A stretch of 46,856 nt of DNA, from sequence record PZ379178.1; one strand, written 5' to 3'. A program made the translations under genes and the position numbers. Position 1 is the stretch's first letter. Every line of letters starts with the position of its first letter. The notes below the pieces were generated by a model. The model ran no database searches. It was not told the origin of the DNA and saw only the letters and a program-made list of their open reading frames with translations. This DNA comes from a phage. This document shows positions 2,717 to 46,856 of the stretch, piece after piece.

Positions 2717-3136
2717 ATGAAAATCACAGACAAAGGTGATTACCTCGAGTTCTATGGCGGACCGGTGAAGTCATGCCCAAAGGAAGACGATGAACAAATC
2801 TTCTGCTCTGATTGGGTGAAATACAACTATCCGCAGATTGTTTACTGGCACACGATTAACGAAAATAAAAAGAGCATTGGTCAAGCAAGAAAAGACCAAG
2901 CCAAGGGGCTTCTCAAAGGTGTGTCAGACTGCTTATTTCTGATACCTGAGTCATTGCGTGGCGGTTATCCATTTGGCGCCATAGAGTTAAAGAGGGCTGG
3001 TAAAACGCAAGCAAGCCCAGTTAGCAATGAGCAAAAGTCATTCCTAAAAAGCGTAAGTGAATCAGGCGGTTTCGCAGCGGTGGCTTATGGAAGAGAGGGT
3101 TTTCTTGCGGCATTCGCAGAGATGATAAGAAAATAG
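2717..3136 (+). CDS. VRR-NUC-like PD-(D/E)XK nuclease
   Basis: 139 aa; GVSDCLFLIP ... FGAIELKRAGKTQ matches D...E-x-K nuclease core of VRR-NUC proteins; immediately follows helicase. Confidence 0.55.
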   Translation: MKITDKGDYLEFYGGPVKSCPKEDDEQIFCSDWVKYNYPQIVYWHTINENKKSIGQARKDQAKGLLKGVSDCLFLIPESLRGGYPFGAIELKRAGKTQASPVSNEQKSFLKSVSESGGFAAVAYGREGFLAAFAEMIRK

Positions 3137-8370: not shown

Positions 8371-9954
8371 TTACCCCAGCAATCGTGGATTAATGTAAAT
8401 TTTATCACCAATCAGGCATGTGTAGTTTTTCTCATCAAGCATAGGAATCAAGTGGTCCTTAATGCGAGTCATAATTCCAGCCTGAGCTTCAAAAGGTTTA
8501 ACCTTGCGTGCAGCCTCATACAACGAGCGAACACCAACAACACCTTTACCATTCTTGCCTTGCTTAATCAGGATATCAACCAGCTTGTTCATCTCGGCAT
8601 TGTCACCAGCATGACCAGCAGCACTAGCGGATGATAAATAAGTCTTGCTTAGTTCGTTGAAAATCATAACCGCTTCCTGCATTGTATCCAGTTCAATCTC
8701 TCTTGACTTTTGAGGGCTGGATCCGGCTGGTGAGAACCAGTTACGAATTACGTGCAGAACAGAAGCGATGCGGATTGCTTGCTTATCAAACTTACCAAGA
8801 GCACCGCGCAACATTGTGTGAGAATACTTGCCACCATCACCAAGATGAGGCTCCATCTCTTGACGAGCGCGGTTAAGGTAACGCATTGATGACGCGCTTA
8901 CAGTAAGTTTCGCTTCAACTTCATTCATAATCTCATGAACAAGACGGAAATAGTCTGCTTTCAGGCCGCCATCAATAGCCTCATAGGTTGAATCACCATT
9001 CTCATCAACAAATACGCGCTCACCAAGAAATGACTTCTCACGCACCAGAAGGAAGCGCTCAGATACACCGATACCACGCGCACCGGCATTCATAATGGCG
9101 TTAATTGTTTCATCCTGCGCAATTACAGAGATACAACCCATAGCCACGAAACTCATGTTGTTTTCTGCATTCGCGCGCGCAATAGATACATTACCCGCAT
9201 CCCACGCCTTAAGCACAAGTTCGCTGTTCGTTTTCTTCGAGCCATCACCGTAAGTCATGCCTAACAGTGAGTTGACGCTAGTAGCCTCATCAGAGATTAC
9301 CGCAAAATTACCCTGGCGATTGTTGATTCGCGCAAGACCTTCCGGTGTAGTATCGGAGACAGGGAATACTATATCGCATAGCTTCTCGAGCTTCTCCTCT
9401 AAATCCTCCTTCTCCTCAAAAAGTGAAGCCATTTCAGAAGGTGATTTCTCCTGCTTCATCTCTTTAGCCAGAGCGGACAGTTTAGCCATAATCTTTTTTC
9501 GATCACGTTTACGTACTTCATTCAACCGCTCAGTCTCAGCAATCATCGGCGCAATTGATAGCGAGTTAATGGCTGATTTACCAGTTGAAGGCGGCTGACT
9601 TGTTACCACGTACAAAGATGTTGGCTGTTGGGTTCCATGATACTCGACAGTAAAACGCCCAAGCATTGCAGCAGAAACACAACCAAGAAAGTGCATGTAA
9701 GCTGACGACTCAGGGAACTGAACCGAGCGAGCGATATTAGCCGATAGCTTACCAACAACATCAATATCATTACCGAGTGAGATTACTGGATACTTATCAT
9801 TACCTGTATCAATCTCGACAGGTGCTTTCCAGAACGATTGAGACTGTCGATAGCCATTGGCATTAATAGCCACGCGAAGCGGTGGTAGGTTGTCATTGGC
9901 AGCGATTGCCATAACCTGCTCAACAGATAGTTTATCTTCGTTGAAATCAAACAT
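8371..9954 (-). CDS. P-loop NTPase-like protein of unknown function
   Basis: 527 aa; Walker A-like PPSTGKS and Walker B-like FAVISDEA; promoter box cassette immediately upstream (10011-10026, minus orientation). Confidence 0.5.
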   Translation of the reverse strand: MFDFNEDKLSVEQVMAIAANDNLPPLRVAINANGYRQSQSFWKAPVEIDTGNDKYPVISLGNDIDVVGKLSANIARSVQFPESSAYMHFLGCVSAAMLGRFTVEYHGTQQPTSLYVVTSQPPSTGKSAINSLSIAPMIAETERLNEVRKRDRKKIMAKLSALAKEMKQEKSPSEMASLFEEKEDLEEKLEKLCDIVFPVSDTTPEGLARINNRQGNFAVISDEATSVNSLLGMTYGDGSKKTNSELVLKAWDAGNVSIARANAENNMSFVAMGCISVIAQDETINAIMNAGARGIGVSERFLLVREKSFLGERVFVDENGDSTYEAIDGGLKADYFRLVHEIMNEVEAKLTVSASSMRYLNRARQEMEPHLGDGGKYSHTMLRGALGKFDKQAIRIASVLHVIRNWFSPAGSSPQKSREIELDTMQEAVMIFNELSKTYLSSASAAGHAGDNAEMNKLVDILIKQGKNGKGVVGVRSLYEAARKVKPFEAQAGIMTRIKDHLIPMLDEKNYTCLIGDKIYINPRLLG

Positions 9955-11426: not shown

Positions 11427-11440
11427 TTCGTTGGATTTAT

Positions 11441-11548
11441 CTATTGTTGCAGCTATTGCAATGATTATCATGATTATTGCACATATAGCAATATTGCATG
11501 GAATGCAATGATGTTTTTGATTGTTGCAGAATTTGCAATGATTGATGT
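11441..11548. repeat. Iteron-like TTGCA repeat array
   Basis: ATTGTTGCAG-N-TTGCAATGATT at 11443-11467 and 11519-11543, plus inverted repeats ATTGC...GCAAT (11476-11492) and TTGCAT-GGA-ATGCAA (11494-11508). Confidence 0.6.
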
Positions 11549-11705
11549 GGGGTGAATGAATGGTGGATGAACTACCATACAAGTTGATTTTGATTCTTGC
11601 TGAGCCAATTTGGATATACACGTTATCGAAGTTATGGTGTGTATATGAGGTGCGCTTCCGAAGAATCATACACGCCTACCACGCTAGATTACGCAATGGT
11701 TACAT

Positions 11706-11762
11706 AATAATATCTATATATATCAACCTTTTACTATATTATTATTATTATTATATATATGT
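11706..11762. repeat. AT-rich (TTA)n element, copy A
   Basis: TAATATCTATATATATCAACCTTTTACT-ATATTATTATTATTATTATATATAT; near-identical copy at 39501-39556. Confidence 0.8.
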
Positions 11763-12027
11763 ATGTATATGGTGTAGATTGGTCGTATGGATGGGTCGAT
11801 AGTTTTTCTATGAAAACTACTAATTTTATCTATATAGATACATATGCATATCCCCGGCGAATCCGCGTAAAATCTTACACAGGGTAATTACACCAGCTAT
11901 AGCTGGGCTGAGAGGTCAAAAAGCGTAACCAATGCAGATATAAACACAACATAACACTTGATAACGCGTATATTCATGATACCATGGTTTCATCTTAACG
12001 AAGAGCAACCAATCAGGAGTAACGAAT

Positions 12028-12549
12028 ATGTCAGAACATAAAGAAGCAGTAAGTTTGGGTGAAATCATTCGATACATGGCGAGTCAGGCGCTCAAGTCAG
12101 AAGACAAAGTGTGCACAGTCCCTGTGACCATGATTGCTCGTCAATACTTCGGCATGAGTCGTGAGACGTTCGTATCGCTAAGTGGTGAGGAGGTTCTACC
12201 TGGTGGTGAATACCACATGCCAAAACTAAAAGCGTCATACGTTTCAAACACCGTAAGCCGAATGCCTGAGATTAAGGCGGCTGACGTGCGCTCAAGGTTC
12301 TCACTTAGTTTTACCGACTTTGAGGGCGAGAGTGAGACATACTGCGCATCACTTAGCCTGGTTCCTGGCGCTGTAAAATCCGGCTCAAGAAGCAAAGCAG
12401 AGCAAGAGAAGGAGGCGGCTACCATTGAAAGGTTCAAGGCTCGATTGTTGAAACTATCACCAAGCGTCGCTGGTCTTGAAGGTGATGAACTTAAGGGTGC
12501 AGTATCAATGATTAACGCATACCAAGAAATGATTAAGGAGACTAAATAG
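12028..12549 (+). CDS. Hypothetical protein
   Basis: 173-aa ORF, first plus-strand gene after divergent intergenic region A; AGGAG SD. Confidence 0.55.
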   Translation: MSEHKEAVSLGEIIRYMASQALKSEDKVCTVPVTMIARQYFGMSRETFVSLSGEEVLPGGEYHMPKLKASYVSNTVSRMPEIKAADVRSRFSLSFTDFEGESETYCASLSLVPGAVKSGSRSKAEQEKEAATIERFKARLLKLSPSVAGLEGDELKGAVSMINAYQEMIKETK

Positions 12550-27997: not shown

Positions 27998-28311
27998 AAC
28001 GCGCAGTATACTTACAATACCAGTCACCACCAACGGATGCCGAACTCGAAGCTATCGGAATGAAACGTTCCGATTATGAAGGTGATGAGCCTGAAGAGTT
28101 ATACTTCGATGAAACAATGATGCAAAGCTGGGATGTGTACTGTGCCATGTCAACTCAATGGCGAGTAGGGGCTTGCGGTGCCACAGGCCTTGATTATAAT
28201 TGCCTTCCATTCTTGTTCAAAGTCTATAAAATAGATGATGACGAAATGGTACTTAACGACATCAGAATACTTGAGGCTAAAGCCTTAGATATGATGAACG
28301 CCAAGAAATAG
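27988..28311 (+). CDS. Tail assembly chaperone frameshift extension (gpGT-like, via -1 frameshift)
   Basis: -1 frame opens only 10 codons before slippery A_AAA_AAC (27988-27994) and runs to 28311, ending just before tape measure gene. Confidence 0.45.
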   Translation, partial: KKLKRAVYLQYQSPPTDAELEAIGMKRSDYEGDEPEELYFDETMMQSWDVYCAMSTQWRVGACGATGLDYNCLPFLFKVYKIDDDEMVLNDIRILEAKALDMMNAKK

Positions 28312-28335
28312 CCATCCTTCGGGGTGGCTTTTTTA
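28311..28335 (+). terminator. Terminator/attenuator hairpin before tape measure gene
   Basis: GCCATCC-TTC-GGGGTGGC (imperfect) followed by T6. Confidence 0.45.
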
Positions 28336-28348
28336 TTATGGAGACAAC

Positions 28349-31330
28349 ATGGCAACTAACGAAATTGCTGGTATCACGCTAGCCGTCGACGTAGCTCAGG
28401 TCGATAAGGGTACGCAATCCTTACAGAAATTCAGGCAAGCAAACGAGCAAGCTGCAACAGGCATTAATAGCTTCGTCAACGCCGAACTTGTAGCCAAGAC
28501 TCAAGCAAGGGACACTGCAAGGCAGCTTGAGGAGCAGCGCAAATCTTTCGCATCACTTCAGCAAGCCATAGACCCAACCGCTGCTAAATTCCTGAAGTTG
28601 CAGAAAGCAGCAACAGATTTGGACAAAGCATTTGAATCCGGGATAGTTCCTGATGATGAATTCTTCAGGCTTGGCTCTGTTATTGAAACTCAAATCAATA
28701 AGCTAAACAGGTCTAAAGCCGCTCTTAGCGAAGAAGGCAGGGCTGCACTACAGGCATCAATAGATAAAGAGAAAGCAACAACAGCAGCACAAAAGTTCAT
28801 TCAATCTCTTGAGAACGAGGCGAATGCAGCAAGCCTGACAAGGACTGAACTTCTTCAGCTTAAGGCTGCTCAGCTAGGAGTTAGTGACCAGGCTGCACCG
28901 ATTATCGACAGGATTGGAAAGGCTGCCGAGGCATCTGCGGTACAATTGCAGAAGCAAAGCTCCGCTTTTGTTAAGTCTGGGCTTAGTGCCGGTCAATACA
29001 AGCAAGCAATTCGACAGCTTCCAGCGCAGATTACAGATATCGGAACCTCTCTAGCTGGTGGTATCCCAATCTGGCTAATTGCAATTCAGCAGGGTGGGCA
29101 GATTAAGGATAGCTTTGGTGGTATTGCTAACACCGCAAGGTTCGCACTGGCAGCCATTAACCCATTAACGGCAGTTGTTGGGACTTTGGGCTTGGCCCTC
29201 GGCGCTCTTGGTGTTGCTGCTTATCAGGCTGACAAGAACACTCGCGGACTAGCATCAACGATAACATTGGTTGGCAACTCAACTATCACGTCGACAGCGC
29301 AGATAAATCAGGTTGTTGATGGAATTGAGAGTTCAACACTAGCCACGCGCGGACTTATCCAGGAGATAGCTAACAGCCTGGTAGCAAACGGTAATCTGAC
29401 TCTTACGCAGATAGATAAGATAACCAAGGCGACAGCACAATGGGCAACTGTAACATCAACAGACTCGAAAACTATTCTTGGATACTTTGATCAGATTACA
29501 AAGGACCCAATTCAAGGTCTGATTGCACTCGATAAGCAGTTCAACTTCCTTCAGTCTGGGCAATTGAAATACATTGAGAATATCAGGAAGACGGCTGGAG
29601 AAACAGAGGCTGTAACCGCAGCTACTGAGCTATTCGCTAACGTTATGGAAAACAGGCTAGCAGACGTAGCACTAAGCCTTAACCCTCTTGAGAGCGCATG
29701 GAATAGCTTCAGGAAGTTTGTAAGTGAGATTTGGGATGATATAAGCAAAAGGACGCTTGGGGCGCTTAACTTAATAACTGACGTTGTTGCTGGGACTATT
29801 GAGCAGATAAGGTCGTTAATAAACTCCGGTGATATCCTATTGGGCGAGTTTGCAATAGCAGCAACCAAGACACTTCAGTCAATACCTGGACTTGGCGATT
29901 TAGGCAATGAAGCAATCGCTGAGCAGCAAAAGATTGTTGATGCAGCTAAGAAGCAAAATGAGGAGTTAGCAAAAAGCATAGCTGAGCGAGATGCGAGAAT
30001 CAGGAAGGGTGAGCTTGGTTATGTCGAGAACAACAATAACACCAACCTTAGCGGAAATAATGCATCAACCGATAAGGAGTTTGCAGCAAGGAAGAAGGCT
30101 CTTGCCGATGAGTATGATGCGATAAAGAAAGCAGGGAGTGAGAGGAAAAAGGCTGTAAAAGAAGAAAGGGATTTAACTTTATCTTATGAATCTGGCGTTC
30201 TTGCACTTCAGGCTCAGTTAAAGGTCTTACAAGAGCACAGAACGATAAATGATGTAATAAGCAATGAAAGAAAGCAGTTATTCCAGGAAGAAGCGAAGTT
30301 TGCAATACTTGAACAAAGACAAGCGGATGGTACGCTTACAAAATCACAGGCTAAGCTACTTGCGCAGAAGAATATCATTCTTGAACAGGCTAAACAGAAG
30401 GCTGAACTTGGTGACCAGATTGTGCTTCAGGAGAGGTCAAACAAGTTACTTGATGACAACCTTAAGAAGACAATACAGATTACCAATGAGGCGAAGAATG
30501 TTTCACTTGCTGCGGGTCTATCAGAAAGGGAGCGGCAAAGGGCAGGAGAACTTCAGGCGCTAGAGTCCAATCAGGTAAACAAGGGTGGCTCTGTAGATGA
30601 TGTTGATTTCCAAAATCTGCTGGAAGCAAGAAAAGAATACTACAGGCAGGAAGATAACCTAAGGTCAGACTGGCAAGCTGGTGTAACTTCAACGCTTGCT
30701 GACTTAACTGAGAAGTACACTGACTTCAACCAAATTGCTAAGGATTTGACTGTCGCAGCTTTTGATGGAATTACCGACCAGATTACAAACCTTGTAACCA
30801 CTGGAGAGACTAATTTCAGGGAGTTCACGGCAAACATACTGAAAATGATTGCGAAAATTGCAACTCAGCTACTTTTGGTAAAGGCTATTGAATCTACAAT
30901 TAAGAGCTTTGGTGGTGACACTGGAGCAGGTAGTGCCTTTGAGTCAATAAAGTCAGCAATTGGCTTTGCTGGCGGCGGTTATACTGGTGATGGTGGGAAG
31001 TATCAACCTGCCGGAACTGTGCACCGCGGTGAGTTTGTATTCACAAAAGAAGCAACAAGCAGAATTGGCGTTAAGAATCTGTATAAGCTAATGCGAGGTT
31101 ATGCAAATGGCGGTGCTGTTGGTGGGCCTTCTGGATATGCTAATGGTGGAGTTGTTGGCGGTACTAATGTCAGTGTTGGTGGTGTGACGGTTAACGTAAG
31201 CTCTGGATTTAGTAGCGGTAATGATGCTAAGGCGATAGAATCTGGAGTCAAGGTTATCGTTGCTGAGGAAATCAGCAAGTCATTCCAGCAGGGCGGAAGA
31301 GCCTTTGCTTATCTGAGGGGTTACAACTAA
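28349..31330 (+). CDS. Tail tape measure protein
   Basis: 993 aa, largely alpha-helical/coiled-coil composition, Gly-rich C-terminus, follows G/GT chaperone pair. Confidence 0.85.
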   Translation: MATNEIAGITLAVDVAQVDKGTQSLQKFRQANEQAATGINSFVNAELVAKTQARDTARQLEEQRKSFASLQQAIDPTAAKFLKLQKAATDLDKAFESGIVPDDEFFRLGSVIETQINKLNRSKAALSEEGRAALQASIDKEKATTAAQKFIQSLENEANAASLTRTELLQLKAAQLGVSDQAAPIIDRIGKAAEASAVQLQKQSSAFVKSGLSAGQYKQAIRQLPAQITDIGTSLAGGIPIWLIAIQQGGQIKDSFGGIANTARFALAAINPLTAVVGTLGLALGALGVAAYQADKNTRGLASTITLVGNSTITSTAQINQVVDGIESSTLATRGLIQEIANSLVANGNLTLTQIDKITKATAQWATVTSTDSKTILGYFDQITKDPIQGLIALDKQFNFLQSGQLKYIENIRKTAGETEAVTAATELFANVMENRLADVALSLNPLESAWNSFRKFVSEIWDDISKRTLGALNLITDVVAGTIEQIRSLINSGDILLGEFAIAATKTLQSIPGLGDLGNEAIAEQQKIVDAAKKQNEELAKSIAERDARIRKGELGYVENNNNTNLSGNNASTDKEFAARKKALADEYDAIKKAGSERKKAVKEERDLTLSYESGVLALQAQLKVLQEHRTINDVISNERKQLFQEEAKFAILEQRQADGTLTKSQAKLLAQKNIILEQAKQKAELGDQIVLQERSNKLLDDNLKKTIQITNEAKNVSLAAGLSERERQRAGELQALESNQVNKGGSVDDVDFQNLLEARKEYYRQEDNLRSDWQAGVTSTLADLTEKYTDFNQIAKDLTVAAFDGITDQITNLVTTGETNFREFTANILKMIAKIATQLLLVKAIESTIKSFGGDTGAGSAFESIKSAIGFAGGGYTGDGGKYQPAGTVHRGEFVFTKEATSRIGVKNLYKLMRGYANGGAVGGPSGYANGGVVGGTNVSVGGVTVNVSSGFSSGNDAKAIESGVKVIVAEEISKSFQQGGRAFAYLRGYN

Positions 31331-38622: not shown

Positions 38623-39291
38623 TTTACTTTCCAGTAACAGCTTAATGTCGATACCAAGTTTATTCTCGATCAATCCGGTCAGTGCGTCCGTCTTTTCTTT
38701 AAGAGCAAAGCATTGCGTTTCATACTTAAACCTTGCTTCCATTTCATCGGAACGTGATGCCCAAGACTGCCGAGCCTCGCAAGCAAGCATATCTAGTTTT
38801 TCATCTGTATTCTTATCCATGAGAAGGATTTCATTGATTCGCTGCTCAGCAACGATTCGCTGACTAAGGTGAGCGTTCTGCGCATTAGCCACACCAAGCA
38901 TCATGCGTGCCTCTTTTAGCTCATCAATACTAACCATCTTGCTGATTACTTCCTGTTGAGTGTTAATGGTTTGCTGCATCTCTTTTAGCTTGTTTAGAAC
39001 CGAACGACGAACAGACTTTGACTCACGCATTCCGACAAGAAGCATTTGCTCCATATTAAGCACTGGTGAGTTGATCGACTTTCTATAACCACCTCTTCCC
39101 TCACTTTTGATTACGAAACTTTCGTAGTCAAACTCAAACCCCTCAATCTCATCCTCTATCCTCTCAACAAAGTCATTGTGTCGAACATCAGATTCACCAG
39201 CAACTAACCTCGCTGGGTTGATAACTTCATTCAAAAACTGATAACTGTTCATTTTCACATCTTCATTTAGTAGAGCTAGGTTCATTTTCAT
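38620..39291 (-). CDS. Rha-like phage regulatory protein (putative)
   Basis: N-terminal SYQFLNEVINPARLVAGESDVRHNDFVERI resembles Rha-family N-domain, coiled-coil C-terminus; start 39291 after AGAGAG SD. Confidence 0.4.
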   Translation of the reverse strand: MKMNLALLNEDVKMNSYQFLNEVINPARLVAGESDVRHNDFVERIEDEIEGFEFDYESFVIKSEGRGGYRKSINSPVLNMEQMLLVGMRESKSVRRSVLNKLKEMQQTINTQQEVISKMVSIDELKEARMMLGVANAQNAHLSQRIVAEQRINEILLMDKNTDEKLDMLACEARQSWASRSDEMEARFKYETQCFALKEKTDALTGLIENKLGIDIKLLLESK

Positions 39292-39380
39292 CTCTCTTTT
39301 TTTATTCTGGCTAAGCACCATTGCCGCCATGCGCACAAATATACCCAAATACTGCATCTTGTCTTTAGCAAATCGTGCTA
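39292..39380 (-). promoter_or_regulatory. Box cassette (minus orientation)
   Basis: Reverse-complement box TAGCACGATTTGCTAAA (39364-39380), TATATT, AAAAAAAGAGAG SD; precedes Rha-like gene. Confidence 0.45.
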
Positions 39381-39500
39381 TTTATCGCAAATTTACCCAT
39401 AAATCATGGTTACGCGTAATCGATGTAACTCGATGTATACCATATGCATCCGCGGGAAATCGTATACGCCTAGTTACGCCAGTTTACGCCATAGTTACAC

Positions 39501-39556
39501 TATAATATCTATATATATCAACCTTTTACTCTTATTATTATTATTATATATATTAC
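39501..39556. repeat. AT-rich (TTA)n element, copy B
   Basis: TAATATCTATATATATCAACCTTTTACT-CTTATTATTATTATTATATATAT; 28-nt core identical to 11708-11735. Confidence 0.8.
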
Positions 39557-39871
39557 TGTGTATATCATGTAACTACTGTTCTGGAGTGTTCCGGTTATAA
39601 TTTTTATATCATGTGATTTTATACAGTATTGCGCAGCACCTATACCTATGCACCCTCCGCTAAAATCGGTATACACGGTATACTCACTATTTACATTGAG
39701 CTATAGCTTGGCTTAAGTGGCGAAAAACGTAACTCATGCCAATGTCTACACGTAGTTACAAAATTATACGCGTATACTTGATTAATTAATAGGTGATACC
39801 AATTGGACTATGCGTTGTGCGTACGGCATCATTAACTCATCGAAAGCACGCAACAATAGAGAGATAGAGAA

Positions 39872-40066
39872 ATGCCATACTTCATTATTAAAGAGAAAAA
39901 CAACGCACTGTTCGGCGATTGCTACTTTGGTGGCCCCGCTGGATATACAGTTCACAAATCTGAAGCGGACCGATTCGATAGCAAGGAAGAGGCAAAATCT
40001 ATTCTGACAGGATATTTCACTGAGGAAGATTTGAAAGCTGTTAAGATTGTTAAAATTAAGGATTGA
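39872..40066 (+). CDS. Hypothetical small protein
   Basis: 64-aa ORF, first plus-strand gene after divergent region B, preceded by leader CATCGAAAGCACG...AGAGAG. Confidence 0.45.
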   Translation: MPYFIIKEKNNALFGDCYFGGPAGYTVHKSEADRFDSKEEAKSILTGYFTEEDLKAVKIVKIKD

Positions 40067-40069
40067 GCC

Positions 40070-41041
40070 ATGACATTTAAAGTTTATACGAACGACGAGC
40101 TAACCAATGAAGCCTATCACGAAGAGAAAGACCATATCTCTGGCTCTTCGCTGGCTGAGATTCTTGCTACTTCTCCAGCAAAATGGAAATTTAAGCAGCG
40201 CAGCAACTCAAGTGCAGCACTAAAGTTTGGCACTTTGAGCCATACGATGATGCTAGAACGTGAAGTGTTCGATTCCACTTACATGCGAGCTACTGACTTT
40301 GACGAAGTGGAAGGATTGATTACTAGCCAAACAGCTTTATCGGCAGCGCTTAAAAAAGTTGGCGTTTCCGGCACGTCAGGGAAGGGTTATAACGAGCTTG
40401 TGGAGATGATGTATAAGTCTGGCGAGGATTGGCCGGTTAAATGGTTAATTGAGCAGCAGGAGAGCGCTGAGGCGTTAATTAGTGGCAAGGAGCTGGTTAG
40501 TGCTAAAGATTACGACAAGGTAATCGCAATGCGAGAAGTTCTGACCAATATTCCGGCTTACGATGCGGTAATTAATTCACCAACAGCACAGAAAGAGCTG
40601 TCAATCTTTGGTGAGATTCTCGGCTGCGGCGTTAAGGTTCGGCTTGACCACGTGGATGTTGTTAATGGAGTGGTTTACATTACTGACTATAAAACAACAG
40701 CAGACGCAAGCCCGAGAGGATTTGGTAAGTCAGCTTATGACCATGGTTACCTGTGTAAGATGGCACTTCAGCGCGATTTGTTTGTTAAAGCATTCAACGA
40801 AAAGCGTAAGGTTGTGGTTCGACTTCTGGCTCAGGAGAAAACAGAGCCCTACTTACCTATGTGCTACACACTTACAGATGAGCAGCTTCGCATTGGGCGC
40901 TTACAATATTTAGAGGCTCTGGCTGTTTACAAGCAGTGCAAGGAACTTGATGATTGGCCTGGATACAGTAATGGGATTACAGAGCAAGATTTGATGATTC
41001 CTGAGTGGGTAAATAAGCAGTATCAAGAATTACTAAAATAG
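40070..41041 (+). CDS. PD-(D/E)XK-type exonuclease (putative recombination exonuclease)
   Basis: VRLDHVDV ... VYITDYKTT matches D...D/E-x-K nuclease core; directly upstream of annealase and SSB. Confidence 0.5.
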   Translation: MTFKVYTNDELTNEAYHEEKDHISGSSLAEILATSPAKWKFKQRSNSSAALKFGTLSHTMMLEREVFDSTYMRATDFDEVEGLITSQTALSAALKKVGVSGTSGKGYNELVEMMYKSGEDWPVKWLIEQQESAEALISGKELVSAKDYDKVIAMREVLTNIPAYDAVINSPTAQKELSIFGEILGCGVKVRLDHVDVVNGVVYITDYKTTADASPRGFGKSAYDHGYLCKMALQRDLFVKAFNEKRKVVVRLLAQEKTEPYLPMCYTLTDEQLRIGRLQYLEALAVYKQCKELDDWPGYSNGITEQDLMIPEWVNKQYQELLK

Positions 41042-41802: not shown

Positions 41803-42219
<417 letters not shown>

Positions 42220-44843: not shown

Positions 44844-44866
44844 TAAAAAAACCTCCCGAAGGAGGT
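44844..44866 (-). terminator. Rho-independent terminator after primase gene (minus strand)
   Basis: CCTCC-CGAA-GGAGG with A7 on plus strand (T-run on minus). Confidence 0.55.
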
Positions 44867-45792
44867 TAGTCTAGTAATTCGTTTGCCTTGTATATTCTCT
44901 TTCTTATGCCTGACTTGAAAAAATTACCATCATTTGGAATTACAATATCAAGATTGCGATCGTCAGCAACGGCAAGTAAATCAAAAGAGTTGCGAGTACA
45001 AGCGACGCGTAACTTGTAGTTCCTAAGCGCATAAGCAACCATTTCCATGTTGTAGCTGGAGTGGCAAACAAGCACGCAGCGATTTCCAGTAGCAAGATGA
45101 ACGCGAACACCATCAATCCAATTATCGACCAGATAAGCGTACTCATCATCTTTAAAGGTGCCAATAATAGAAACAGACTGGCGAGTATAATCTTTTGCAG
45201 CATAGCTAACATCTCCATCTTCATTGATAAACATTACATTGCACATATCATCTGATATGCCGTCACTATAAGCCATAAAGCACGGTACTGCGTGTATTAG
45301 TTCGCCTGATTTCGTCCTGCCAACATCAAAACCAAATTCGCTATAGATACCCTCGTATGTACTTAGCGGAGTTAATTCTACTCTTTCCGTCCTTTCCATT
45401 ATCTCTAAGCATCTTTCGTGATCAATCTTGGCGCCCATTTTGTATGGTGATGTACGAGATGCTCTTTTGTTTGCTTTTGATATAACCTCTACTGGAACGA
45501 GATTCAGCCAATCACCAAGCGTATCTATTGTTTCGCTATAACTCATTCCCGAGCATTTCATAACCCAGCCAACACCAGAATCATTTCCGCACTGGTTGCA
45601 TATTGCTGCGCCATTTCCCTTTTCCTGACCTAACTCATCAGTGAAGCGAAACCTATCCCTGCCAAAGCAGTAAGGGCACGGACCATGTTTCTTGCTGAGA
45701 TTCTCCTTTGTCCATCCAAGGTTCGATGAGTAGAATTCGCCCCACATTCCCTTCATTTTTGCTATCACTTCGCTCTTATCATGGTGACTCAT
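44866..45792 (-). CDS. DNA primase-like protein (zinc-binding domain)
   Basis: N-terminal CPYC-x17-CNQC zinc-ribbon; start 45792 with GGAGG SD; promoter box upstream (45844-45860). Confidence 0.5.
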   Translation of the reverse strand: MSHHDKSEVIAKMKGMWGEFYSSNLGWTKENLSKKHGPCPYCFGRDRFRFTDELGQEKGNGAAICNQCGNDSGVGWVMKCSGMSYSETIDTLGDWLNLVPVEVISKANKRASRTSPYKMGAKIDHERCLEIMERTERVELTPLSTYEGIYSEFGFDVGRTKSGELIHAVPCFMAYSDGISDDMCNVMFINEDGDVSYAAKDYTRQSVSIIGTFKDDEYAYLVDNWIDGVRVHLATGNRCVLVCHSSYNMEMVAYALRNYKLRVACTRNSFDLLAVADDRNLDIVIPNDGNFFKSGIRKRIYKANELLD

Positions 45793-45860
45793 AGTTACCT
45801 CCATAAACAATAAAGGCACTATACACAATGTATAGCGCCACTGTTTATCAATTCGTGCTA
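45793..45860 (-). promoter_or_regulatory. Box-hairpin-leader cassette (minus orientation)
   Basis: Reverse-complement box TAGCACGAATTGATAAA (45844-45860), palindrome CTATACATTGTGTATAG, GGAGG SD; precedes primase ATG 45792. Confidence 0.5.
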
Positions 45861-46340
45861 TTTCCCTTGCTCTTTATCTTTTCGTGCTGCTTCGTTAGCG
45901 GCCTTAATCTTGCGCCATGAGCGACACTCTGGTTTAGTTGCTAGCTCAGCCTCAGTAACAACACGCAGCATATGACGCTTCTTGCAACGTAGAGTTAGCG
46001 GTTTCCCGTTACCGTCGAATTGCAGATCTGGTCGGCAGAATGTAGCGCGAAAACCTTCTCCATTTCGCTTATAGTAGTTGTGCGACAACTGAGCGCCACG
46101 CGCAGAAATCATCCCGCGATCAAACCATTGCTCTACAGTCTGGTGAGATACATTTAACTGCTTGGCGATATTGGCCTTCGTGCCGTAGAAATCAAGAACC
46201 ATCTCCAGACGAGCTCGTAGCCCAGCCTTTACTTCATCTTTCAATACGTAGTAGCCTGACGGTCGTTTGCGCTGTTTCTTGTCTTGCGTGCGGATGGTTC
46301 CGTTATTGCCGTTGATAGTTCGCTTGTCAATTTCACACAT
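45858..46340 (-). CDS. HTH-type DNA-binding protein (putative regulator)
   Basis: 160 aa, basic; TKANIAKQLNVSHQTVEQW resembles helix-turn-helix. Confidence 0.45.
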   Translation of the reverse strand: MCEIDKRTINGNNGTIRTQDKKQRKRPSGYYVLKDEVKAGLRARLEMVLDFYGTKANIAKQLNVSHQTVEQWFDRGMISARGAQLSHNYYKRNGEGFRATFCRPDLQFDGNGKPLTLRCKKRHMLRVVTEAELATKPECRSWRKIKAANEAARKDKEQGK

Positions 46341-46363
46341 CTCATTACCTCAATAGCACTTTT

Positions 46364-46436
46364 TGTTAAACAATAGGTTCGATAATTGCTATTATACAGC
46401 AATGCAACGAACTAACAAACTGTAAGGGTATTTAAA
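46364..46436 (+). promoter_or_regulatory. Box cassette, variant box
   Basis: Box TAGCACTTTTTGTTAAA 46364-46380, TATTAT, leader CAATGCAACGAAC; precedes helicase ATG 46437. Confidence 0.45.
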
Positions 46437-46856
46437 ATGCTTCCAGTAGAGCGCTTAGTGGCGAACTTTGATAAAGAGAAAATTAAACAGATTCAGAAAG
46501 ATTACCAGTTTGGAGACATAACGCCTTACGAATTCCAGTGCGTGACATTTGACGCAATCGGTAAGGCTATTGGCAAGTACGAAGCGCCATTCATCGCAGA
46601 CCTGTCGGTGTCTGCTGGTAAGACAATTATACTCGCCATGATTGGGAAACGAATGGAACAGCTTGGCCTTCCTTACATGGTCCTATCTCGCCAGTCAGAG
46701 ATTATCAGCCAGAACGCAGAGGAACTTCGTAATTTCGGCATCCGTAATAGCGTCTATTGCGCTGGCCTTAACGTTAAATCAGTTTACTACCCAACCATAG
46801 TGGCTAGCGAGGGTACGGCTGCCAACGGCTTATTTAAGGGGCTTGGTGACTATGTT
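46437..46856 (+). CDS. Helicase N-fragment, 5-prime part (runs off window end, continues at nt 1)
   Basis: ATG 46437 is 73 nt downstream of promoter box 46364; Walker A SVSAGKT; 140 complete codons to window end, in frame with nt 1 ORF. Confidence 0.6.
   Translation, partial: MLPVERLVANFDKEKIKQIQKDYQFGDITPYEFQCVTFDAIGKAIGKYEAPFIADLSVSAGKTIILAMIGKRMEQLGLPYMVLSRQSEIISQNAEELRNFGIRNSVYCAGLNVKSVYYPTIVASEGTAANGLFKGLGDYV

Follow-up and report, generated by a model that had tools for sequence, protein, structure and literature searches.

The DNA analysed here (the window) is sequence record PZ379178.1, the complete 46,856-bp genome of a T1-like Escherichia coli siphophage (Drexlerviridae, Braunvirinae) whose nearest records are phage TR2 (Christensenvirus) and IME253/Rtp (Rtpvirus). 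We find that an intergenic stretch of 514 bp at 39358–39871, referred to as region B, carries a conserved module of short repeats on both sides of a very AT-rich core, that this module has a paralogue in a second intergenic region (region A), and that the layout recurs throughout the family with repeats that change from lineage to lineage. Comparative analysis indicates that region B is a cis-acting DNA module rather than a gene or a structured RNA. We tentatively favour, at slightly less than even confidence, its reading as a replication origin composed of iterons and an unwinding element, one of two such origins per genome.

From left to right, module B consists of the following features:

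39409–39440, no strand assigned: left outer repeat cluster, with GTTACGCG (39409–39416), TGTAAC (39424–39429) and TGTATAC (39434–39440).
39447–39460, no strand assigned: conserved block CATCCGCGGGAAAT, nearly invariant in a 14-sequence alignment.
39463–39500, plus strand: left inner array of TATACGC, GTTACGC, TTTACGC and GTTACAC, direct repeats in helical phase that face the AT core.
39495–39556, no strand assigned: AT-rich core, (TA)n-ATCAACCTTTTAC-(TTA)5-(TA)n.
39559–39573, minus strand: right inner array of TGTATAT (39559–39565) and TGTAAC (39568–39573), inverted copies of the left motif family that also face the AT core.
39669–39698, plus strand: right middle cluster of GGTATACACG, GTATACTCAC and TTTACAT, in which relatives keep TATAC and not GTATAC.
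39699–39708, no strand assigned: palindrome AGCTATAGCT, also found in region A within 11885–11900.
39728–39777, no strand assigned: right outer cluster of CGTAAC (39728–39733), CTACACG (39746–39752), GTTAC (39755–39759) and TATACGCGTATAC (39765–39777).

Module B thereby presents two sets of short repeats flanking an easily melted AT-rich region, the layout seen in phage-inducible chromosomal islands (PICIs) and Staphylococcus aureus pathogenicity islands (SaPIs). The TAC triplets of the left inner array fall at 39465, 39475, 39485 and 39496, and its four units, which begin at 39463, 39473, 39483 and 39494, are spaced 10, 10 and 11 bp apart. Together with GTTACGCG at 39409, these are the repeated TTACGC-type units that an earlier note, made from the sequence alone, had placed at 39409–39500; they are real and can now be located as phased units. 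The TGTAAC and TGTATAC of the left outer cluster form a 10-bp tandem (TCGATGTAAC/TCGATGTATAC), the position of GTTACGCG reads TATAC(G/A)CG in most relatives, and TATACGCGTATAC contains an ACGCGT palindrome. On each side, the outer clusters lie ~100–250 bp from the AT tract, just upstream of gene-proximal promoters.

Word counts set this region apart from the rest of the genome. Of the 10 GTATAC copies in the window, five lie in 39358–39871 (at 39435, 39462, 39669, 39678 and 39772), where 0.06 copies are expected from the rest-of-genome rate (Poisson P = 4e-9), 0.17 from local mononucleotide composition and 0.59 from a local first-order Markov model. The five sites are those of the earlier note, whose positions were at most 1 bp off. 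That note had also raised the question of genome-wide representation: over the whole genome the hexamer is at expectation (10 observed vs 8.0 ± 3.0 in shuffles), neither avoided nor enriched, and its regional frequency is far above chance. Related words follow the same pattern, with 14 copies of TATAC vs 0.79 expected, 8 of TACGC vs 0.74 and 6 of T[AT]TAC[GA]C vs 0.23, each 10- to 25-fold enriched in the region. The motif set, which averages 0.88 hits per 400 bp over the genome, peaks only at 39401–39800 (19 hits) and 11601–12000 (9 hits); in the Rtp and T1 genomes too it clusters only at modules A and B.

The 514-bp region matches 135 phage records, 88 of which cover at least 80% of it; most full-length matches are ~80–90% identical, and this conservation holds even where the left-hand gene is non-homologous. 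A sub-core (39411–39577) is kept in Rogunavirinae too. Alignment reveals that the repeat cores of the left inner array are invariant while the spacer bases vary, and that the TACGC cores are also kept in Rogunavirinae. The GTAAC at 39425 and both units of the right inner array, TGTATAT and TGTAAC, are each identical in all 10 Braunvirinae and all three Rogunavirinae, the TATAC at 39463 is kept in the same sequences, and the CGTAAC at 39728 is kept in 10/10 Braunvirinae. The AGCTATAGCT palindrome is partly kept in relatives (TATGGCT, TATATCT).

What is conserved at the GTATAC sites is not the palindrome. The copy at 39435 persists as a hexamer in 9/10 Braunvirinae and 3/3 Rogunavirinae. At 39462, 39669 and 39678, TATAC is kept in 10, 8 and 10 of the 10 Braunvirinae, and the full hexamer in only 4, 4 and none; the copy at 39772 is kept in one of the 10 and is specific to this phage and TR2. 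Judged from the alignment, the conserved unit is TATAC or GTTAC followed by (G/A)C, and the earlier note's emphasis on the GTATAC palindromes is not supported by this comparison. One could still take the palindromes themselves to be functional, for example as targets of restriction-modification or of a palindrome-binding protein, and the placing of 5 of the 10 genomic copies within 514 bp would speak for it. However, one hexamer of five is kept in relatives, the rest persisting as TATAC or not at all; region A has none; the genome-wide frequency equals expectation; and other lineages carry unrelated, non-palindromic repeats. We consider this explanation scarcely credible.

The region does not behave as coding sequence. 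In an alignment of five phages, variable columns make up 20–36% of the module and 40% of the exonuclease gene, and the region is conserved no less than the genes beside it. Those within 39400–39871 reveal no codon periodicity (chi2 p = 0.76–0.93), in contrast to the controls, the neighbouring 64-amino-acid (aa) open reading frame (ORF; p = 4e-5) and the exonuclease gene (p = 1.5e-17), and the open frames across the region differ from phage to phage. This bears out the earlier description of a non-coding divergent region, whose left limit we move at least to 39292 (see below). The ORFs annotated here as coding in relatives (rtp46, EC3a gp44 and a 135-aa ORF in TR2) were rejected as over-extensions because their frames are inconsistent and codon periodicity is absent. 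The affected annotation in deposited genomes is the small ORF upstream of exonuclease VIII, over-extended by ~200–240 nt into the module (28260–28658 in locus L025, Rtp; 1774–2205 in L003, CEB_EC3a; 4100–4507 in L001, TR2). Calls over-extended in this way appear to underlie PHROG 35664 (143 aa), of which only the last 64 positions match the real ORF. Over-extended ORF annotations in many deposited genomes are thereby corrected.

The conserved sequence might instead act as RNA, either as a long structured 5′ leader or as a small RNA, in two paralogous copies. The conserved flanks would be transcribed if the candidate core promoters described below fire, and a 7-bp hairpin around CCAATTGG (39790–39810) is partly conserved (z about −3.6). 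Against this, a permissive Rfam search of 39000–40200 (E ≤ 1) gave no credible match, returning only a eukaryotic snoRNA model (E = 0.13; 20.8 bits vs a gathering threshold of 100), and consensus folds of 120-nt windows on both strands, with column-shuffle controls, reached only −3 to −13 kcal/mol, which is too weak. The one sequence resembling a terminator forms a weak stem of 5 bp, and relatives do not preserve its pairing; short conserved repeats in both orientations fit DNA sites rather than helices. An RNA function is, in our view, very improbable.

By nearest-neighbour calculation, only one 60-bp window of the genome forms a less stable duplex than the AT-rich core (z = 5.2), namely the core of region A (z = 5.7). 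In the Rtp, T1 and TLS genomes, no window has a lower GC content than the A and B cores. Among the five phages, 39520–39559 contains no variable column at all. The consensus for integration host factor (IHF), WATCAANNNNTTR with an AT-rich flank, has a perfect match, TATCAACCTTTTA, at 39516–39528 and again at 11721–11733. We note that this pattern occurs four times in the genome against 3.35 expected, which is not above chance; the sites are putative, and the one in module B is lost in Rogunavirinae. The core also contains two overlapping candidate promoters:

39525–39530 and 39549–39554, plus strand: candidate rightward sigma-70 promoter, TTTACT and TATATT with an N18 spacer and a predicted start near 39561.
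39543–39548 and 39568–39573, minus strand: candidate leftward sigma-70 promoter, TATAAT and GTTACA (reverse complements) with an N19 spacer and a predicted start near 39536.

These candidates raise the main rival possibility, namely that region B is a control hub for early transcription, in which back-to-back sigma-70 promoters in the core are governed by flanking arrays that serve as operators for a phage regulator. Candidates for this regulator are the Cro-like helix-turn-helix (HTH) protein encoded at 45858–46340 and the adjacent anti-repressor-like protein. Such a hub would switch the early operons, with recombination genes on the right and anti-repressor/lipoprotein genes on the left, and region A would serve other early blocks. 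Consistent with this, all 14 aligned sequences have the rightward candidate in the same position, and 12 of them have the leftward one. The rightward candidate persists in Rogunavirinae as TTTAGA-N17-TATATT and overlaps a promoter annotated in CEB_EC3a, and the region A equivalent of the leftward candidate, TCTACA-N17-TATAAT, scores 10.2. The core is nucleotide-invariant and lies at a nearly fixed distance of ~320 bp from the exonuclease gene, the outer repeat clusters sit just upstream of gene-proximal promoters, and both modules head operons.

However, the two core candidates have modest scores (8.8 and 7.9), and no promoter of region B is among the genome's top 30. AT-rich DNA always yields such matches, and a simple promoter scan gave 5 hits vs 3.2 ± 1.9 expected in shuffles, which is not above shuffles. 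The 310-nt leader that would follow the rightward promoter lacks conserved RNA structure, and separate gene-proximal promoters are already present at both edges. Furthermore, 10–12 sites over ~500 bp, symmetric about a melting-prone tract, exceed typical operator needs, and the recognition helix of the HTH protein does not track repeat type cleanly. We regard the control hub, the strongest rival to the origin as the function of the region, as rather unlikely, though to be taken seriously. It is compatible with an origin and the two could coexist; many origins are activated by transcription.

The second copy of the module lies in region A:

11600–12027, plus strand: paralogous module A, in the same orientation as B, with an AT core at 11704–11763, upstream of the DUF7174 gene at 12028.

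The AT-rich element that the earlier note had described as shared is real: 39458–39563 matches 11664–11770 at 84% identity, with a near-identical core of ~54 bp. The paralogy extends beyond the AT tract and spans ~400 bp. Both modules have a left TATAC(A/G)CGT unit, phased TACGC units, the virtually identical core and TGTATA repeats on the right, and they also share AGCTATAGCT, CGTAAC and ACGCGTA. The left part of region A (11440–11560) carries dense TTGCA/TGCAAT-type repeats, whose conservation is separate from that of the module. Its counterpart in the T1 record is the stretch around position 1 (the pac end, with a terminal repeat at 1–2800), and it is a likely pac region. A third divergent junction (46341–46437), between the HTH regulator gene on the minus strand and the helicase gene on the plus strand, is ~100 bp long. 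It contains a single 21-nt repeat and, for the regulator gene, the promoter-like site TTGTTA-N16-TATAAT; it has no GTTAC/TATAC repeats and no AT core.

The pac end of the T1 and TLS genomes falls in region A and could point to a role in packaging, with the modules as binding arrays for the small terminase or as accessory pac-recognition sites. In T1, the record starts in the region A equivalent, ~230–250 bp left of the AT core, with the terminal repeat at 1–2800. In TLS, too, the record begins at a comparable distance from the AT core, and region A contains the start or end of several relatives' records. ATATA repeats were earlier suggested as the T1 pac (cited in PMC8421802). Region B, however, has neither the physical end nor the pac-proximal sequence of a pac region, the TTGCA/TGCAAT repeats of 11440–11560 being without a counterpart there, and module B goes with the exonuclease operon rather than with the terminase genes. 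A second pac ~18–28 kb away would give a second series of permuted ends, whereas T1 packaging is described as starting from one pac site. The small terminase diverges no more and no less than other candidate binders. Packaging is accordingly a quite improbable account of the modules.

The layout, and the replacement of its repeats, extends across the family. In T1 (Tunavirinae) and TLS (Tempevirinae), modules are found at the same two map positions with different repeats, the consensus being (C/T)GTGTAACA in T1 and (T/C)GTTCAC(G/A) in TLS. Of 80 viral-contig loci retrieved around homologues of exonuclease VIII, we scanned 75. Most of these contain an AT core with 10–20% GC, in most cases ~320 bp upstream of the exonuclease gene and flanked by arrays of a lineage-specific hexamer; a few loci lack a clear motif. 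The repeats include GTTACA/TATAC, GAAACA (six to seven copies), AGAACA, GTAAGA (10–11 copies) and GGACAA (12 copies, with the longer unit GGGACAAA). In three loci read base by base (L073, L071 and L041), repeats occur in both orientations on both sides of the core, with further clusters 150–250 bp out; inward-pointing inner pairs are clearest in L071. In several lineages, the lineage's own repeat recurs in module A. An exact 18-mer search with the core among viral contigs returned 11 true T1-like loci and six chance hits in unrelated coding DNA, and a search of E. coli genomes and plasmids for satellites or plasmids borrowing the module gave no match.

T1 and Rtp differ from TLS in their repeats although all are phages of E. 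coli. Because phages of one host species differ in this way, the repeat binder is most likely phage-encoded and co-evolving, as in iteron–initiator pairs. For the same reason, host-factor motifs inspected by eye were set aside: the DnaA box (best match 7/9), LexA box, TyrR box, ArcA, the H-NS TCGAT motif, and GTTAC/GTAAA direct repeats of OmpR/CpxR type.

On the origin reading, a phage-encoded sequence-specific protein would bind the repeats T[A/T]TAC[G/A]C and TGTAAC/TGTATAC, IHF might bend the core, and the repeat-bound protein would open the 60-bp AT tract. The phage's MCM-like DUF3987 helicase and DnaG/P4-alpha-type primase could then load, and the outward-facing edge promoters and core candidate promoters could assist by transcriptional activation. 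Speaking for this reading are the clustering of the repeats at A and B, the low duplex stability of both cores, the constraint on a stretch that is non-coding, the layout kept in other lineages with exchanged repeats, and the helicase and primase encoded by the phage. The DUF3987 family is described as SF6/MCM-like with a C-terminal winged helix (PMC4889955). The helicase is encoded at 8371–9954, ~1.8 kb from core A and ~15 kb (on the circular map) from core B, and the primase at 44866–45828; the T1 primase is annotated as similar to P4-type alpha primases. In a broader form, which we hold a little more tentatively still, T1-like phages would replicate from paired paralogous origins, or from an origin and a cis enhancer in the manner of P4 ori/crr, with fast-evolving, lineage-specific iterons that a phage initiator would read. 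The initiator could be the DUF3987 helicase, the Cro-like regulator or DUF7174, a rapidly diverging protein whose gene adjoins module A.

The earlier note had called the region an origin-like or regulatory hub. This is partly supported: the element is real, non-coding and constrained, has an origin-like anatomy and shares its core element with region A. The stress on GTATAC palindromes is not supported, and that first reading had missed the ~400-bp paralogy to region A, the family-wide lineage-specific repeats, and the bracketing gene-proximal promoters with the 21-nt repeat.

Several observations weigh against the origin reading, whose support comes from sequence only. Two copies per genome are unusual for an origin, though P4 ori/crr and multi-origin phages exist. 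The AT core is nucleotide-invariant across genera, beyond the needs of an unwinding element, which fits recognition by RNA polymerase or IHF; it contains a −35/−10 pair conserved in position and, as would suit a regulatory region, keeps an almost constant distance upstream of the exonuclease gene. Neither module adjoins the 3′ side of an initiator or helicase gene, unlike PICI origins, the helicase gene at 8371–9954 being distant. Covariation with repeat type assigned no binder either: divergence follows phylogeny alike for the helicase C-terminus, the HTH recognition helix of the Cro-like regulator, the small terminase and DUF7174. In its helicase C-terminus, this phage resembles TLS more closely than T1, though T1 shares the GTTACA-type repeat, which weakly suggests that the helicase winged helix is not the specificity determinant. 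A sequence search of the PDB with the helicase returned nothing useful.

Comparison with known systems places the module among elements of a known kind. In PICI/SaPI origins (Fillol-Salom et al. 2018, PMC6092414), as in the module, two short sets of element-specific iterons flank an AT-rich proposed melting site, and the repeat sequence varies between related elements. Their replication needs an element-encoded primase and helicase-initiator, and the T1-like phage here encodes a primase and a helicase. The PICI/SaPI origin occurs once, immediately 3′ of the rep gene, whereas the module occurs in two copies, neither of which adjoins the helicase gene; each copy, again unlike PICI/SaPI origins, lies between outward-facing promoters, and its origin role is proposed from sequence data.

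Phage P4 offers a likeness to modules A and B in its ori and crr, two separated cis regions with a common short iteron, and the TLS repeat (T/C)GTTCAC(G/A) resembles the P4 type I iteron, TGTTCACC. P4 fuses its primase, SF3 helicase and winged-helix origin-binding domain in one protein, whereas here the primase and the SF6-type DUF3987 helicase are two proteins, and repeat type is not mirrored in the C-terminus of the helicase. Lambdoid ori/O is similar in that iterons lie beside an AT-rich tract, specificity co-evolves with the initiator, and activation is coupled to nearby transcription. In lambda, the initiator gene itself contains the iterons, which are 19 bp long; here the units measure 6–8 bp, lie between genes, flank the AT tract on either side and are duplicated. 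The best analogue for the control hub is the early/late control region of phi29, an AT-rich region with multi-site p4/p6 binding between divergent promoters of a lytic phage. There, four p4 sites directly overlap the promoters, whereas here more than 10 short sites surround a central melting-prone tract in two paralogous copies.

The TLS paper (PMC11447400) looked for lambda-type iterons and reported none in that genome, and the SU57 paper found no oriC-like origin. Our literature searches returned no relevant study of a mapped T1 origin or a T1-like transcriptome, and in the literature searched the element, an iteron/AT-rich cis module, appears undescribed for Drexlerviridae. T1 belongs to the seven classical T phages, and T1-like phages commonly contaminate laboratories and fermentations and are phage-therapy candidates. 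With coordinates for a conserved, duplicated, family-wide origin-like module and with repeat switching between lineages established, the start of T1 replication or early transcription becomes testable. If true, the paired-origin reading would locate a classical T-phage origin missed in the TLS and SU57 accounts and would give a natural series of orthogonal iteron/initiator pairs.

Module B lies within a longer interval bounded by genes and promoter elements, as follows:

39292–39871, no strand assigned: full non-coding interval in the ORF list, between the anti-repressor-like gene (minus strand) and the 64-aa ORF (39872–40066) that precedes exonuclease VIII.
39338–39343, minus strand: −10-like TATATT, 20 nt after the 21-nt repeat, with a predicted leftward start near 39331.
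39364–39381, minus strand: copy of the T1-family 21-nt repeat, minus-sense ATAGCACGATTTGCTAAA, with the palindrome TAGCA-N5-TGCTA and 0 mismatches to ATAGCACNNNTTGNTAAA.
39799–39848, plus strand: rightward gene-proximal promoter and leader, with the CCAATTGG palindrome (39799–39806), −35-like TGGACT (39804–39809) and −10-like CATCAT (39827–39832).
39858–39874, plus strand: ribosome-binding region AGAGAGATAGAG and ATG (39872) of the 64-aa ORF, conserved in Braunvirinae.

The repeat copy at 39381–39364 matches the published consensus aaATAGCACnnnTTGnTAAAA, is intergenic and is oriented with the anti-repressor-like gene, as expected of a member of this repeat family; the consensus and its status as of unknown function are given in the TLS paper (PMC11447400). 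The element is kept in 13/13 aligned relatives, even with a non-homologous left gene. As the upstream element of the leftward gene-proximal promoter, it is confined to the left edge of the region and distinct from the GTTAC/TATAC arrays. In the window, the 21-nt repeat ATAGCACnnnTTGCTAAA has about 20 copies, e.g., at 3133, 6560, 13168, 18898, 27322, 41038 and 46353 on the plus strand and at 45861, 39381, 38623, 10807 and 10027 on the minus strand. It is followed by a −10 hexamer at a fixed 20 nt, a conserved leader, CATCGAAACGAAAGAGAGA, and a start codon; counted by eye, the 20-nt spacing to a −10-like hexamer holds in ~12 of 16 good copies. The centre of the palindrome lies at about −41.5 from the predicted start, and a canonical −35 at 17 bp is absent. 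By this geometry the repeat looks like an activator-type promoter element of the class II activator-dependent kind, a concrete reading for repeats that were so far unexplained.

At the right edge, the promoter has an N17 spacer, and its −10 reads TATAGT in relatives. A position-weight-matrix scan places a candidate at the same position in 9/14 aligned sequences, and the TLS authors predict a sigma-70 promoter, P51, at the equivalent edge. The leader CTCATCGAAAGCA (39836–39848) also follows 21-nt-repeat promoters elsewhere in the genome.

To the left of the module, the minus-strand block encodes a DUF6453 protein, a Cor-type phage lipoprotein and the anti-repressor-like protein. The latter matches the 'anti-repressor' family PHROG 8235, and a Pfam search with it gave nothing above threshold; the label 'Rha-like' attached to it in the earlier note is unsupported. 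The called start of this gene, ATG 39357, is probably wrong, because the promoter-like 21-nt repeat lies 4 nt upstream and the PHROG profile match begins at residue 13 of the version starting at 39291. It is a mechanical ORF start (39252–39357 in the window, minus strand) that lies upstream of the −10 hexamer of the 21-nt-repeat promoter. The repeat position and the profile start therefore extend the non-coding interval left at least to 39292, and the gene probably begins at ATG 39291 (ribosome-binding site GAGAGA) or at the ATG that follows.

To the right, the plus-strand recombination block encodes the 64-aa ORF, exonuclease VIII, Erf and the single-stranded DNA-binding protein (SSB). The 64-aa ORF has a full-length match to PHROG 5247 in addition to its codon periodicity, and the exonuclease VIII/Erf/SSB operon lies downstream of module B in all lineages examined, the one observation that bears on the earlier note's suggestion that replication may be linked to recombination. 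In TLS, module B stands between two same-strand genes and is therefore not simply a by-product of divergent promoters. In Rogunavirinae (AHP42, phiEB49 and Opt-79, loci L021 to L023), module B has the anti-repressor/regulatory gene on its right, in plus-strand orientation, instead of on its left in minus-strand orientation; TR2 combines remnants to the left with a regulatory gene to the right. The position of module B is thus constant while the neighbouring genes are rearranged.

Elsewhere in the window, GC skew tracks gene orientation only. The ATP-dependent helicase gene crosses the window ends (46438–46856, continuing at 1–2715), is ~1.1 kb longer than the gene of its 664-aa Rtp homologue and is split into ORFs 43–390, 219–1073 and 1006–2715. 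The last of these has a sub-threshold Pfam Intein_splicing match (23.9 bits vs a cut-off of 35.8), which may point to an intein or a homing-endonuclease insertion. In the protein at the SSB position (138 aa, 41803–42219, plus strand), an uninterrupted run of over 20 glutamines, encoded by a CAG/CAA repeat, stands just ahead of the acidic C-terminal tail (...GGKQQQQ...QQFNDDIPF).

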